Assembly: GCA_963805455.1 (NCBI GenBank)
Contig: CAWDUJ010000004.1
Location: 32,627 to 96,626, forward strand
Direction of reading: 5' to 3'
Origin: an uncultured Solirubrobacterales bacterium
GTDB lineage: Bacteria > Actinomycetota > Thermoleophilia > Solirubrobacterales > 70-9
DNA: 64,000 bases
The translations under genes were made by a program, and so were the position numbers. Below are positions 37,274-64,000 of this stretch, piece by piece. Numbering within the stretch: position 1 is the first letter of the stretch; every line of letters starts with the position of its first letter. The notes beneath the pieces are model-generated. The model was not told the DNA's origin and did not search any database. It worked only from the letters and a program-made list of their open reading frames with translations.

Positions 37274-38848
37274 TCAGGGCGTCGCGGTCCGGACCCGGTA
37301 GATGTGGAACACCGACTGCCGCAGACCGTGTTTGAACTTCTTCGCGTGGACCAACTGGCGCACGATCAGGAGCTTCTTCTGCGGTTTCTTCGCCATTTTC
37401 GCCACCGTGGAGGTGAACTTGGGCTTGATCTTCAGTTTCGCCACCTTCCACTTGTTCGGCTTCTGCTTTGCAGATACCGACGCCGTGATCGGCTCACCGG
37501 GCTTGCAGCGACGGCGCCCCTTCCTGGTCGCACACCGCTTCTTCACCGTCACCGCCGAGGCCGCACCGATGCATTCGGGCTTGAACCTGTGTGCGCATTT
37601 GAGGCGCAGGTAGAGGAACCTGCCTTCCAGTAGCGCGGTGTTGAAATCGGGCGGCACCGGCGGGCCGACCCGGTGGGTGGCGCTGGTCTGGGTCGCGGCC
37701 CCGGCCTGATTCGATCCGGTCACCAGACAGACGTACTGGCCGGCTTTGGACGCCGCGATCGAGGGGCTGGTCGCGCCCGCGACAACTTTGCCGTCTCGGC
37801 TCCACTGGTAGGCGAACGAGCTTGGAGCGCGGTAGAGCAGCGCTTCGAAGATGTCGGCGGCCCAGGCCCCCTGCGAGCAGGAGAGGGTCATTCCGATGTC
37901 GGAGCCACCGCCGATGGTCGGGGGGCCGGTGCCGATCGGGGCTTTCTGGACGATCGGGAAGGCCGGCCCTTCGGTGGTCGCTCCCGCGGTGGAGAGCGGT
38001 CCGCCGCCGCTGCCGTCGAGCCTGGCGAACCCGATGGTGTCGCTGGCTCCTTCGCCGCCGTTGTTGGCCCAGTAGACGATCCCCGTTTCGGGATCGATCG
38101 CGACCCCCCAGGGCACGTCGACCGGGGCGCCGGTCGTCGGCAGGTCGGCGCCGCCGCTGCCGTCGAGCCTGGCGAAGCCGATCGTTCCCCCAAGATCGGA
38201 CCAGAAGATCCGCCGCGAGCTGGGATCGATCGCGACCCCGGCGGGAATCACGACGGTCGCTCCGGCGGTGTTGAGGTCGCCGCCGCCGCCGCTGTCGTTC
38301 GAATTGGCGAACGAGATCGTCGCGCCGTTGTAGTTGGACCAGTAGACCCGGCCGGCGGCGGGGTCGACGGTTATCCCGGAGGGCCCATCGAGAGTGGCTC
38401 CCGTCGTGTTGAGGTCGGCCCCGCCGCTGCCGTCGAGGCTGGCGAAGGAGATCGTCCCGGGAACGGTGTCATTGGCCCAGAAGATCTTCCTCGAAGCCGG
38501 GTCTATCGCGAGCCCATCCGGAGCCTGGACGCTCGCCGAGCCGGTGTTGAGATTCCCTCCCGGGCTTCCGTCCGGGTTGAGGAAGGAGATCGTGTTGGCG
38601 CCCTCGTTGGTGTAGTAGATGCGTCCCGTCGCCGAGTCGATCGCCATCCCGGCCGCTCCAGTCGCGCCGTTGAAGATGTCCCCGGCGCCACCGCCGGCGA
38701 GGTTGGCGAAGGAGAGCGCTTTGCCGTTGTCGTTGCCCCAATAGACCCGGTCGGCGCCGGCGGAGGATGCCGGCAGCACCGCCGCAAGGACACAGGCGAG
38801 AGAGACCGCGGCCAAGAACCAGGCTTTTGGTTCTCGAAATTGCACCAA
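37274..38848 (-). CDS. Secreted six-bladed YWTD/NHL-like beta-propeller protein with Ig-like domain and Lys-rich C-terminal tail
   Basis: Signal peptide. Six repeats: RVYWGNDN, RIYYTNEG, KIFWANDT, RVYWSNYN, RIFWSDLG and IVYWANNG, each followed by ISFA.LDGSGG.L.T. Then ...YQWSRDG...YVCLVTGSN (Ig-like). The tail is rich in K/R. Confidence 0.7.
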   Translation of the reverse strand: MVQFREPKAWFLAAVSLACVLAAVLPASSAGADRVYWGNDNGKALSFANLAGGGAGDIFNGATGAAGMAIDSATGRIYYTNEGANTISFLNPDGSPGGNLNTGSASVQAPDGLAIDPASRKIFWANDTVPGTISFASLDGSGGADLNTTGATLDGPSGITVDPAAGRVYWSNYNGATISFANSNDSGGGGDLNTAGATVVIPAGVAIDPSSRRIFWSDLGGTIGFARLDGSGGADLPTTGAPVDVPWGVAIDPETGIVYWANNGGEGASDTIGFARLDGSGGGPLSTAGATTEGPAFPIVQKAPIGTGPPTIGGGSDIGMTLSCSQGAWAADIFEALLYRAPSSFAYQWSRDGKVVAGATSPSIAASKAGQYVCLVTGSNQAGAATQTSATHRVGPPVPPDFNTALLEGRFLYLRLKCAHRFKPECIGAASAVTVKKRCATRKGRRRCKPGEPITASVSAKQKPNKWKVAKLKIKPKFTSTVAKMAKKPQKKLLIVRQLVHAKKFKHGLRQSVFHIYRVRTATP

Positions 38849-57894: not shown

Positions 57895-58743
57895 CTAGCT
57901 GAGCGTGAATCCGGAGAGCAGGCGTTTCTCGCTCTCCCCCTCGATCTTGGCGACGACCTCTACCCGCCCCTCGAGCGGCGTGCCGCGGATCTTCGTCGCC
58001 AGCAGGTCGTCGACCTGGAAGATCCCGGCCGAGTTGTTGAGGTCGATCTCGATCCGCACCGCGCGCTCCTCCCCGGCCTCGATCCGGACCTCGTCGACGG
58101 CCGCGGCCGAGATCGAGTGGATCCCCTCGCGTCCCGCCTCCATCGGGATCCGGATCCGGCCCTGCGCCATGTCGAGCGCATCGGCGACGCGGACGACTCC
58201 GGCCTCGACCGTGTAGGGCTCGCCGCGGCGGCGGTGGCCGATGATCGCGTGGAGGATCTCGGAGGCGATCACGGTCCGTTTCGGCTCACGATAGGCGTCG
58301 GCGAGAAGCCGATCGAGGGCGCCCGCAGCGAGGAAGAGGCTGTAGGCCTCGTGGTCGTTGCGGTGGATCGACATCCCGATGTCGTGGAGCAGGGCGCCGC
58401 CGGCGACGACCACCTCGGCGTCCCGCGAGGGGAGCCCGTGGTCGGTGACAACCGCCGGCTCGACGCCGGCCTTGACCAGCAGCCGCAGCAGCCGCAGCGC
58501 GATGTTGAGGACGATCTGCATGTGGACCCAGGAGTGGTCTGACATCCCGAGCCGTTCGGCGTGCACCTGGGCCATGTACCACCAGGTGCGCACCTGCTCG
58601 TCCTCGTTCACAGCCGAGAGGAAGCTCTCGAGCTTGCGATTGCCCCGGGTTGGCGCCCGGACCTCCGACTCGGCGATCGCCTCCTCGAGCGGCTTGCGAG
58701 CAGGCCCGTCGGGGTCCGGAGCGGGAACTCGCTCTTCATTCAT
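57895..58743 (-). CDS. HD-domain phosphohydrolase
   Basis: SDHSWVHMQIV...LLHDIGMSIHRNDHE are HD motifs. Confidence 0.75.
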   Translation of the reverse strand: MNEERVPAPDPDGPARKPLEEAIAESEVRAPTRGNRKLESFLSAVNEDEQVRTWWYMAQVHAERLGMSDHSWVHMQIVLNIALRLLRLLVKAGVEPAVVTDHGLPSRDAEVVVAGGALLHDIGMSIHRNDHEAYSLFLAAGALDRLLADAYREPKRTVIASEILHAIIGHRRRGEPYTVEAGVVRVADALDMAQGRIRIPMEAGREGIHSISAAAVDEVRIEAGEERAVRIEIDLNNSAGIFQVDDLLATKIRGTPLEGRVEVVAKIEGESEKRLLSGFTLS

Positions 58744-58752
58744 GACAAATCC

Positions 58753-58811
58753 TCGCGCTTCACTCGCTGCGCGAAGAAACAGAAGATGACGCTTGCCCGC
58801 TCCGCGCTCAC
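58753..58811 (-). repeat. Family B leader repeat, copy R1 (ends 9 nt before the HD gene ATG)
   Basis: Minus-strand read is GTGAGCGCGGAGCGGGCAAGCGTCATCTTCTGTTTCTTCGCGCAGCGAGTGAAGCGCGA. Confidence 0.8.
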
Positions 58812-58860
58812 GAGAGGAGATCGTAGGGGAGAGGAAGGCGCGACCCGCCCAAACAATGGA

Positions 58861-58918
58861 TCGCGCTTCGCTCGCGGCGCGAAAATCAGAAGATGACGCT
58901 TGCTCGCTCCGCGCTCAC
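58861..58918 (-). repeat. Family B leader repeat, copy R2 (its GTGA supplies the stop of the rpf-like gene)
   Basis: Minus-strand read is GTGAGCGCGGAGCGAGCAAGCGTCATCTTCTGATTTTCGCGCCGCGAGCGAAGCGCGA. Confidence 0.8.
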
Positions 58919-59409
58919 GAGCCGCAGATGGGCCAGGGGCTGGAGCCCGAGGCCGTGTACAGCAGCGCCGCGCGGTAGTCCTGCTCGGCCTCGGGGGCCG
59001 CGGCGGGATCACCGGAGCCGCCGACCGAGGCCCATGTTTCGTGGCTGAACTGGTATTTGCCGCGGTAGGTGCCGTCTGAGGAGACGATCGTCGGGTCGCC
59101 GCCCGACTCGCAGGAGGCGATCGCTTCCAGGGTCGAGAGCGAGACGCCACCCGGAAGGGTCGCGAACGCCTCGCGCCGCTGCCGGCGCTGTTCGGCCCGG
59201 TGGGCGGCGCGAATCCGCTTCAGGCCGACGTCGATCGCGTGGTGGAAGTCGGTCGCCGGCCGGTAGAGGACGTCGAGCGCCGCCGGGTGGGCGTCGCCGA
59301 GGCCGATGTGCTGAGCCGGCTCGCCATCGCGGCCGGCGCCGACGGCGACCGAGGGAAGCGCGAGGATCGCGATCAGGGCAAGGACTGAATATGTGTGCTT
59401 TGTGAGCAA
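58915..59409 (-). CDS. Secreted transglycosylase-like (Rpf-like) domain protein
   Basis: Signal peptide, then C-terminal IASCESGGDPTIVSSDGTYRGKYQFSHETW...EQDYRAALLY...PWPICG. Confidence 0.8.
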   Translation of the reverse strand: MLTKHTYSVLALIAILALPSVAVGAGRDGEPAQHIGLGDAHPAALDVLYRPATDFHHAIDVGLKRIRAAHRAEQRRQRREAFATLPGGVSLSTLEAIASCESGGDPTIVSSDGTYRGKYQFSHETWASVGGSGDPAAAPEAEQDYRAALLYTASGSSPWPICGS

Positions 59410-63026: not shown

Positions 63027-63038
63027 GCCGGTGATCGA

Positions 63039-63396
63039 TGGAGGCGGCCGGAATTGAACCGGCGTCCCTGGTCGTAGCGCGAAGGCGTCTACAGGCATAG
63101 CCGGCGCTTGATTCTCGTCTCCCGGGGTCCGCGCCGGCGGGCACTGCGGAAGATAAAGCCCCTCAAATTTCCCCTGGCGGCCGAGGCGCTCCGCCTGGGT
63201 GAGCCCGCAATTGAAGCCGGAACCCCCCTCCGCGGGCGGGAGAGGGCCGACTCTCACCTACTTAGCTATTGACTAAGCAGCGAGGGCGAACTCATGGTCC
63301 GCACGTATTGGTTGGTGCCGGTGTTTTGCGAGGCCTCCGGCAACCTCGGCCTGCAACCGTTCGCACGGACCGACCAGATCGAAGCCTGTCGCCCCC
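63039..63396 (-). ncRNA. ssrA: tmRNA (transfer-messenger RNA)
   Basis: The 5' GGGGGCGACAGGCTTCGA pairs with the 3' ...GGACGCCGGTTCAATTCCGGCCGCCTCCA, giving an acceptor stem with G3:U70 and a T-arm. The tag frame ends ...GCG GAC CAT GAG TTC GCC CTC GCT GCT TAG = ...ADHEFALAA*. Confidence 0.9.
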
Positions 63397-63429
63397 GTGC
63401 TATGTCTGCCTCAATTGTACGGTTCCCCG

Positions 63430-63488
63430 GTGAGCGCGGAGCGAGCAAGCGTGCATATCTGGTCCTTCGCGCAGCGAGAGAAGCGCGA
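63430..63488 (+). repeat. Family B leader repeat, copy R3 (ends 9 nt before the oxidoreductase ATG)
   Basis: GTGAGCGCGGAGCGAGCAAGCGTGCATATCTGGTCCTTCGCGCAGCGAGAGAAGCGCGA. About 50 of 59 positions are identical to R1 by hand alignment. Confidence 0.8.
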
Positions 63489-63497
63489 GAGCCTGTG

Positions 63498-64000
63498 ATG
63501 GCTGAGCGGGAATTCGACGCAATCGTCCTCGGCGCCGGAGCTCCCGGGGAGGTCTGTGCCGGCCGCCTCGCCGAAGGCGACCTCAGGGTCGCGATCGTCG
63601 AGCCCGGGCTCCTCGGCGGCGAATGCTCCTACTACGCGTGCATGCCCTCGAAGGCCCTGCTGCGCCCCGGCGAGCTGCTCGCCGAGGCCCGCCGGGTCCC
63701 CGGCGTGCTGCAGGCGGTCACCGGAAGCCTCGACCCCGAGGCGACGCTGGCGAGGCGCGACGAGGTGATCCACGACCTCGACGACTCGGGTCAGCTGTCC
63801 TGGCTCGAGGGCCGCGGCATCAAGCTCTTTCGCGGCGCCGGCCGGCTCGACGGCGAGCGCCGGGTCGTGGTCGGTGACGACGTCCTGACCGCGGCGAGGG
63901 CGATCGTCGTCGCCACCGGCAGCAGCGCGGAGATGCCGCCGATCGACGGCCTCGACACGGTGCGGGCCTGGAACAACCGTGAGGGGACGACCTCGCGGCG
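63498..64000 (+). CDS. Class I pyridine nucleotide-disulfide oxidoreductase (dihydrolipoyl dehydrogenase / mercuric reductase-like), partial
   Basis: Not in the ORF track because there is no stop in the window. Reads MAEREFDAIVLGAGAPGEVCAGRLAE...GGECSYYACMPSKALL, with the redox CxxxxC. Confidence 0.8.
   Translation, partial: MAEREFDAIVLGAGAPGEVCAGRLAEGDLRVAIVEPGLLGGECSYYACMPSKALLRPGELLAEARRVPGVLQAVTGSLDPEATLARRDEVIHDLDDSGQLSWLEGRGIKLFRGAGRLDGERRVVVGDDVLTAARAIVVATGSSAEMPPIDGLDTVRAWNNREGTTSR

Follow-up and report, generated by a model that had tools for sequence, protein, structure and literature searches.

The 64,000-nucleotide stretch analysed here (referred to as the window), from an uncultured Solirubrobacterales bacterium, contains three copies, R1, R2 and R3, of a short repeat located between or in front of protein-coding genes. 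The comparisons described below indicate that these are copies of a dispersed, recently mobile repeat family and not a feature of the particular genes beside which they are found. The repeat unit is 68 nt long. The family is common in soil Solirubrobacterales, with clearly more than 150 separate sites in genomes of this order and in metagenomes from soil, and its members do not qualify as locus-specific leaders. We propose that R1–R3 are probably copies of an element of 68 nt that moves or duplicates non-autonomously, is specific to the Solirubrobacterales and works in the manner of the interspersed repetitive units of mycobacteria (MIRUs).

In the window, a 23-nt motif from the 5' part of the repeat has exactly three matches, at 58789–58811 (minus strand), 58896–58918 (minus strand) and 63430–63452 (plus strand). 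The same is true of a 23-nt motif from the 3' part, at 58753–58775 (minus strand), 58861–58883 (minus strand) and 63466–63488 (plus strand). The initial annotation of this DNA had placed the three copies at these positions, with 49 nt between R1 and R2 on the minus strand, and both placement and spacing hold. None of 100 dinucleotide shuffles had three matches; the repeat is real and non-random. The unit had been given as 58–59 nt, which corresponds to the core only; the full unit consists of a 58-nt core and a variable tail of 8–9 nt. R1 (58744–58811, minus strand) is a complete 68-nt unit with a GTG, the conserved core (positions 2–59) and a 9-nt tail, GGATTTGTC. It sits directly between a -10-like hexamer, TACGAT (58820–58825, minus strand; 8 nt upstream of R1 position 1), and the ATG of a gene for an HD-domain phosphohydrolase (57895–58743, minus strand), the host gene which it has displaced. 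As previously described, R1 carries a small open reading frame (ORF; 58740–58811, minus strand) of GTG and 22 further sense codons (VSAERASVIFCFFAQRVKREDLS), i.e., 23 in all, and the TGA of this mini-ORF lies inside the ATGA of the HD gene start.

R2 (58852–58918, minus strand) is an older, decayed unit of 67 nt, whose own frame stops at codon 11. This truncation had been attributed to a 1-nt deletion, but the real cause is an in-frame TGA (58886–58888; TGT in R1) located upstream of the deletion, and a related genome (L001) has an R2 of 68 nt with the same codon-11 TGA. The GTGA of R2 does supply the stop codon of the neighbouring rpf-like transglycosylase gene (58915–59409, minus strand), as had been observed. 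The last codon and the stop of this gene (58915–58920) are derived from R2, which adds one residue to the protein; the window sequence and those of other R2 carriers end in ICGS*, whereas relatives without R2 end in ICG*. The HD and rpf-like identities given in the initial annotation were upheld. R3 (63430–63497, plus strand) is a complete 68-nt unit in the divergent region adjoining a transfer-messenger RNA (tmRNA) gene. It is positioned between a -10-like TACGGT (63418–63423, plus strand; 6 nt upstream of R3 position 1) and the ATG of a pyridine-nucleotide-disulphide oxidoreductase gene, which it has displaced and whose 5' part (63498–64000, plus strand) runs past the end of the window. The R3 mini-ORF (63430–63498, plus strand), which had not been analysed before, contains GTG and 21 further sense codons, and its TGA (63496–63498) shares its A with the oxidoreductase ATG at 63498 (TGATG).

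The syntenic locus was compared in ten related assemblies, which were found by a homology search with the HD protein. This search returned thousands of close relatives named Solirubrobacterales or Thermoleophilia, and an exact-protein look-up of the window HD protein found no record. R1 is absent from all of the close relatives (L001 and L123–L128) and was found in the window only. The relatives lacking it read TACGATC(C/T)CCTCTCG followed directly by ATGAATG, and the window has 67 extra bases exactly at this junction, with no duplicated flank and with boundaries that are unambiguous by comparison with the empty alleles. The R3 site is empty in L001, L123–L126 and L002, which read TGTACGGTTCCCTG followed directly by ATGGCT; R3 is an insertion of 68 nt with boundaries apparently shifted 2–3 nt relative to those of R1. 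In L127, the nearest relative of the window (HD gene 98.0% identical), the orthologue of window 63418–63500 (L127:11422–11500, reverse strand) retains a 22-nt remnant of R3, GTGAGCGCGGAG-GAACTATGTG, which has lost the interior of the element between its GCGCG(G)AG arms and no longer keeps the stop/start overlap. R2 is present in L001, L123, L125, L127 and L128, and is missing in L124 and L126, which encode an identical HD protein. The genomes without R1 or R3 are approximately 96–98% identical in the HD gene (96–97% for those lacking R3), and all three copies are polymorphic among genomes with at least 95% identity in this gene. Since near-identical genomes lack them, R1 and R3 are, on the evidence of these alleles, insertions, and R2 is the older copy. 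The initial annotation had overlooked this mobility.

A TGA is present at the junction in all three window targets. The tails of R1 and R3 bear no resemblance to the upstream flanks, which together with the clean boundaries of R1 rules out a target-site duplication or a target-derived tail. In the empty alleles, TACGAT is found 7–9 nt before the HD ATG and TACGGT 6 nt before the oxidoreductase ATG, and neither host gene has a Shine-Dalgarno sequence there. Both starts are thus arranged as expected for leaderless genes. In the filled alleles, the element's own GTG takes the place of the host ATG behind the -10-like hexamer. The tmRNA-divergent TTGTACGGT box/oxidoreductase site is occupied by different element variants in several lineages, among them four metagenome contigs (L143, L177, L231, and L241), and the same site (window 63430–63497) is empty in the other close relatives of the window. 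This repeated occupancy could reflect a hot spot, an old polymorphism, or allele transfer by recombination.

The extent of the family was determined with two scans. A 19-base pattern from the 5' half of the element matched at least 117 stretches in the genome collection, and a profile search of the 117 listed loci recognised 142 copies, of which 129 were strong; the genome counts given below are of copies among these listed matches. Clustering by flanks separates the 129 strong copies into at least 87 groups; tandem arrays from several loci are merged in one of these, so that more than 87 independent sites exist. Metagenome contigs were scanned with a pattern from positions 11–32, which yielded at least 120 stretches, with about 100 true copies among the matches listed. 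This pattern imposes nothing on either end of the element, and we therefore treat the metagenome copies as an independently obtained replicate. Among the genome matches listed, almost all are in metagenome-assembled genomes (MAGs) of the Solirubrobacterales; the named true matches listed belong to this order (one to the Conexibacteraceae), with the exception of one unclassified 'Actinomycetes' MAG. The only non-actinobacterial match listed in the genome scan, L035 (OZ245764.1, a Rhodospirillales MAG), is not recognised by the family profile and is regarded as a chance match to the 19-base pattern. Searches of plasmid and phage collections with blastn gave no match to the element, and carriage on plasmids or phages was rejected on this basis. 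We searched the literature for such repeats in Solirubrobacterales or Thermoleophilia and found none described.

The conserved part of the unit has an abrupt beginning at position 2 (TGAGCGCGG...) and extends to position 59 (...GAAGCGCGA). At position 1, the bases found are A, G or T, with A the commonest and C almost absent, and they form ATG, GTG or TTG in 120/129 genome and 88/100 metagenome copies. In about half of the loci, position 1 is also the third base of the last sense codon of the upstream gene, in a genome of approximately 70% GC. Because C is nearly absent despite this third-codon context, the start codon at position 1 is regarded as constrained. The frame opened by it comprises 21–24 sense codons in 107/129 genome and 71/100 metagenome copies, terminates with TGA in 120/129 and 85/100, and has a stop that overlaps an NTG in 110/129 and 70/100, respectively. 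Based on a third-position GC phase test, the downstream coding sequence is co-directional with the element in 119/123 and 91/94 cases (about 97%). The positional relation to downstream starts first noticed in the window holds when tabulated across the family: the mini-ORF stop overlaps the in-frame downstream start, as ATGA or TGATG, in 83/119 genome and 61/91 metagenome copies. The upstream gene is co-directional in 99/124 and 71/91 cases, and in 57/99 and 40/71 of these its stop codon is the TGA at positions 2–4 of the element. Some tails contain GAGG. Head-to-tail arrays with an exact 68-nt period are found at L060 (3 units), L052 (3), L075 (2), L021 (2), and L056 (two pairs). As 68 equals 2 mod 3, the frame of each array unit ends at the TGA in the NTGA of the next unit, which gives what would be a chain of overlapping mini-cistrons.

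Among loci without coupling to an upstream gene, a TAnnnT peak was seen at -14 to -12 (59/198 distinct loci, versus 1/198 in a control window). This would put the start codon of the element where a leaderless 5' end is expected in about 30% of the loci; other loci have a Shine-Dalgarno-like motif in place of TAnnnT. A simple scan detected neither canonical sigma-70 promoters nor intrinsic terminators in or near the copies, and the leaderless assignment therefore depends on the positional TAnnnT peak.

Two further observations concern the ends of the unit. Many downstream genes begin with the first 12 nt of the element, ATGAGCGCGGAG (MSAE...), as at L107, L095, L108, L076, L096, L060, L052, L031, and L013, and in the L052 array the unit variant ATGACC matches the start of the host gene. 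Together, the TGA junctions and the shared first 12 nt suggest microhomology-dependent events, partial units fused to genes, or co-option of the first codons of the element. In addition, a sub-lineage with an GTGATCGCGG 5' end and an GAAGCGGAGG 3' arm, in which C57 is lost, is represented by L135, L137, L142, L149, L161, and L162, and by the further metagenome copies L171, L186, L200, L214, and L216. Several of its copies precede one same gene (atgaactacttcgtcaccgg...).

The ends of the element appear to be paired with each other. In 95 independently ascertained copies, which were used for all covariation tests, a whole-element hairpin has 28 double-changed cells, compared with 4.9 ± 1.7 in shuffles (0/500 as good). 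It outscores all slid controls, and the same fold was predicted independently by unguided RNAalifold. The hairpin includes four helices (5–8/54–57, 12–13/49–50, 16–17/45–46, and 20–23/40–43) separated by purine-purine internal loops, and a 16-nt terminal loop within which lies the patch of greatest variability. In R1, the outer helix spans 58755–58807 (minus strand), with positions 5–8 (58804–58807) pairing with 54–57 (58755–58758). Pairs 5/57, 6/56, and 7/55 exhibit several kinds of compensatory change (G-C to A-U, C-G, or U-G; C-G to U-A via U-G; G-C to C-G or U-A), while the consensus G-A juxtapositions 9/53 and 10/52 become C-G or G-C in variants. One long imperfect hairpin, formed either in RNA or in single-stranded DNA, is supported by these counts, with the reservation that the copies are related and that positions 11–23 are fixed by the search pattern. 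Explicit pair counts were more informative than all-pairs mutual information, which was dominated by adjacent positions of the variable patch 24–28 and by one sub-lineage (GTGATC...GCGGAGG).

Selection on the encoded peptide was assessed from differences to the consensus. The synonymous fraction in the mini-ORF frame is 0.27, with 0.22 expected, and is approximately 0.30 in the other two frames, with 0.30 expected. Variability at the three codon positions is 0.115, 0.108, and 0.156, no 3-nt periodicity was found in the variability of the element, and almost every copy encodes a different peptide. The synonymous fraction and the near-equal variability of codon positions lead us to reject peptide-level selection, and the purifying selection on amino acids that marks a functional small-protein gene is not seen in these alignments. 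Thus, the start/stop anatomy of the coupled leader peptide proposed in the initial annotation is borne out across the family. Because the peptide is not conserved as a protein, we infer that the frame is a ribosome relay and not a functional leader peptide. The genes that follow the element are diverse. The 85 independent downstream proteins contain 86 Pfam families with no more than three members in any one family, and they include SecA, peptide deformylase, argininosuccinate synthase, imidazoleglycerol-phosphate dehydratase (IGPD), and phosphoglucose isomerase. Since these genes are mutually unrelated, a pathway-specific leader is ruled out, and the occurrence of copies before such genes shows that insertion can be tolerated ahead of normally essential genes.

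In the proposed mechanism, which is the reading with the best support, the element would be selfish and transparent to translation. It would land exactly at a translation start, where its position 1 would form ATG, GTG, or TTG at the spot of the former start codon. The new start would inherit the initiation signal of the gene, which may be the stop of an upstream gene overlapping as NTGA, a Shine-Dalgarno sequence, or the leaderless 5' end of the mRNA. Ribosomes would then translate the frame of 22–23 codons, the peptide sequence of which would not be under selection, terminate at the UGA overlapping the displaced start (AUGA or UGAUG), and re-initiate there. The GAGG in the tail may aid re-initiation in some copies. 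Because ribosomes would be handed back to the displaced start, insertion would be nearly neutral, even before essential genes. The end-to-end hairpin (positions 2–59), as single-stranded DNA or RNA, is presumably recognised by the mobilising machinery.

Several points weigh against this mechanism. It is from geometry that we infer both translation of the frame and re-initiation, and given a constant length of 68 nt, copies inherit much of their start/stop geometry without independent selection for it, so that copy counts exaggerate how many independent events there were. We identified neither a transposase nor a recombinase as partner; a partner gene was not looked for. There is no target-site duplication, R1 being a clean 67-nt insertion, and the boundaries of the element are uncertain by about 3 nt. 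Approximately 10% of the copies, including R2, have an early in-frame stop or no start codon, and thus the coupling is not always maintained. Moreover, the covarying helix is short, with 4–6 Watson-Crick pairs in its outer part; some of the double changes come from sub-lineages and are not independent events; and thermodynamic folding of single copies does not favour this helix. Finally, a stem involving nucleotides 5–8 of a leaderless mRNA might hinder initiation.

The closest parallel is provided by the MIRUs, which are described as apparently mobile repeats of 40–100 bp that insert at start codons and so place an internal ORF in coupling with the host gene, at -4 nt (PMC12548453, which cites Supply 1997). 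The passages on these repeats in a second source mention direct repeats of a tetranucleotide, terminal repeats that are imperfect, internal inverted repeats rich in GC, and ORFs that overlap the genes next to them (PMC3184786). The MIRU array at the Mycobacterium tuberculosis senX3-regX3 locus has a 77-nt period (2 mod 3) with units ATGACC...CGCTG followed by ATGA, and each unit contains a 25-codon frame chained to the next by TGATG/ATGA, as in the Solirubrobacterales family. Both types are short (40–100 bp), GC-rich, dispersed repeats of an actinobacterial lineage, found at gene starts or between co-directional genes. Each carries a co-oriented ORF that overlaps the upstream stop with its start codon and the downstream start with its stop codon (ATGA/TGATG), occurs in tandem arrays with a period of 2 mod 3 (77 or 53 nt for MIRU, 68 nt for the element), has both filled and empty alleles, and has complementary GC-rich arms near both ends. 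The features that characterise MIRU-type architecture (dispersed repeat, co-oriented overlapping ORF, 2 mod 3 arrays, and filled/empty sites) are all present in the family.

There are also differences. MIRUs are hosted by Mycobacterium and relatives, whereas the host class of the element is Thermoleophilia (Solirubrobacterales). About 30% of its copies are at a predicted leaderless 5' end, a context that is not mentioned in the review passages on MIRUs consulted (PMC12548453, PMC3184786), and its pairing takes the form of a covariation-supported whole-element hairpin with purine-purine internal loops. The family profile (nhmmer) had no match in the M. tuberculosis senX3-regX3 MIRU array, the sole match (E value 5.2) being elsewhere in the locus. 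Global alignment to a MIRU gave a score of 27, compared with 15.2 ± 6.5 for shuffles, and 41 of 1000 shuffles scored as high. On this evidence, homology with real MIRUs was rejected, and we regard the element as similar to a MIRU in the way it works but not as belonging to the MIRU family by sequence. The delivery of a terminating ribosome to an overlapping start by a short upstream ORF, as outlined in the relevant passages of PMC12548453, is another likeness, with the difference that here the upstream ORF, known from sequence alone, is carried by a multicopy mobile sequence and did not evolve in place. The Neisseria REP2 and Borrelia IR repeats, as portrayed in the sections of PMC3184786 concerned, supply a promoter and the gene's own start codon; unlike these, the element supplies a separate mini-cistron coupled to the host start and has no recognisable promoter.

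The covarying hairpin also allows another reading, which is possible although clearly less probable than the MIRU-like mechanism. Elements that home to start codons might have arisen a second time, independently, or the family might be an anciently diverged lineage of such elements; in either case, the hairpin would be the substrate of a structure-guided insertion/excision machinery aimed at NTGA junctions; these may include the very 5' end of leaderless genes. If this were true, phylogenetic profiling could reveal the machinery, given the size and diversity of the family and its recent activity in many sequenced genomes, and could also explain the movement of MIRUs. To our knowledge, the mechanism of MIRU movement has never been established, and none is given in the review passages on MIRUs that we consulted.

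We consider it unlikely that the element is a purely DNA-level selfish repeat, of the repetitive extragenic palindrome (REP), MITE (miniature inverted-repeat transposable element), or IS200/IS605-derived type, with a frame and overlaps that are never used by ribosomes. The overlaps would then be the pattern left after purging of harmful insertions, or a by-product of a TGA-specific target site. The TGA at the junction in all three window targets is consistent with such a site, and the conservation of nucleotides instead of codons would likewise be expected. REPs, together with the bacterial interspersed mosaic elements (BIMEs), and IS200/IS605-derived palindromes are thought to move as folded single-stranded DNA. 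The end-to-end folding of the element resembles such structured substrates, and the REP/BIME elements with their REP-associated tyrosine transposases (RAYTs) and the IS200/IS605-derived elements share with it a small size, structure, non-coding and non-autonomous nature, and lack of target duplication. GAGG in some tails could also start the host gene without any coupling. REPs, however, are palindromes of 20–40 nt, typically located 3' of genes in both orientations or as inverted doublets, and they have a conserved GTAG head. The element lacks this head, points the same way as the downstream gene in 97% of copies, and keeps a fixed phase to start codons, a geometry that REPs do not have; in head, orientation, and position it does not conform to the REP/RAYT type. 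Nor does it have the terminal inverted repeats and target-site duplication of a classical MITE, as its terminal complementarity is limited to a GCGC core of 4–6 bp. Against a DNA-level explanation there are also the start codons kept by about 90% of the copies, with C nearly never at position 1 despite the GC-rich third-position context, and the placement of the new NTG exactly at the expected leaderless 5' end in about 30% of the loci. At these loci, ribosomes could hardly get to the host ATG, which lies 68 nt further on and often lacks a Shine-Dalgarno sequence, unless they were relayed to it. Moreover, insertions are tolerated before essential genes.

The initial annotation favoured a host cis-regulatory leader, in which an upstream ORF and an attenuator or riboswitch-like switch with alternative hairpins would control the downstream genes, and this we regard as still less probable and quite doubtful. 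It had proposed a 7-bp local hairpin, UUCGCGC-N10-GCGCGAG (positions 37–43/54–60), and an alternative pairing of the 5' GAGCGCG with CGCGC. The local hairpin is conserved, yet many single changes break it; it has two double-changed cells, compared with 3.3 in shuffles (412/500 as good), and the alternative pairing has none. Both pairings were discarded for want of covariation. The z-scores obtained on folding R1, R2, R3, and the consensus as RNA and as DNA range from -0.5 to +1.2, i.e., the folds are no more stable than shuffles, which rules out unusual thermodynamic stability, and the minimum-energy structures differ between copies. A comparison with Rfam gave only the tmRNA and a tRNA at the gathering score and nothing over the element at an E value of 1 or below, which rules out a known RNA family. 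The end-to-end helix 5–8/54–57 and the local hairpin share the same 3' arm and are mutually exclusive for that reason, as in a switch; the element would be transcribed as a 5' leader or intercistronic spacer wherever it is located, and the tail is weakly U-rich (TTTGT) after the local hairpin. No terminator-like site was found, and the constraint that a sensing leader peptide would show is absent. Presence of the element varies among near-identical genomes, identical units are found in tandem arrays, and the downstream genes are functionally unrelated. Hence the coherent gene set, vertical inheritance, and covarying switch structure of a riboswitch or attenuator were not observed.

It is very improbable that the element encodes, many times per genome, a functional microprotein of 22–23 residues (MSAERASVHIWFFAPRAKRE..), since, although most copies have a start codon and an open frame and the peptide has a hydrophobic centre between charged residues, its synonymous fraction is barely above random, some copies stop at codon 11, nearly every copy differs, and the C-terminus is set by the variable tail and the host gene.

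The principle behind MIRUs, a mobile repeat hidden at start codons by means of a throw-away ORF that passes ribosomes to the host gene, has been known since 1997. If the MIRU-like mechanism is correct, this strategy is not peculiar to the mycobacteria: it is found again, in elements of unrelated sequence, in an actinobacterial order that branches deeply, is abundant in soil and has mostly escaped cultivation. The Solirubrobacterales family is large and active, is unrelated to MIRUs in sequence, belongs to a different class, and combines clear insertions at leaderless starts with a fold supported by covariation. An insertion can give a leaderless gene a leader of 68 nt, predicted to be translated, with no obvious harm, which would amount to an experiment set up by nature on leaderless initiation and termination-reinitiation. 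Diverged copies in the hundreds, cleanly filled and empty alleles, and the covarying hairpin also provide handles for finding the mobilising enzyme.

There are consequences for annotation as well. The units give rise to spurious short ORFs and misplaced N-termini, and the first four codons of the element (MSAE...) seem to have been adopted by some genes. Among public gene calls for RegX3 of M. tuberculosis (P0121–P0126), several are 245–347 amino acids long and not 227, and one of these calls (P0123, 256 amino acids) starts inside the MIRU array of the senX3-regX3 locus (L249:2355–2593). Errors of the same kind are to be expected for genes located behind the Solirubrobacterales element.

Other features were noted in the window and in related loci. 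The tmRNA gene (63036–63396, minus strand), which is divergent from the oxidoreductase gene, encodes the tag peptide ADHEFALAA, and in related loci smpB and a gene for an RNB-domain protein (RNase II/R family) are found near the tmRNA gene. A separate region of the window, 37965–38718, contains diverged direct repeats of approximately 135–147 nt that are 66–89% identical to each other and unrelated to R1–R3.

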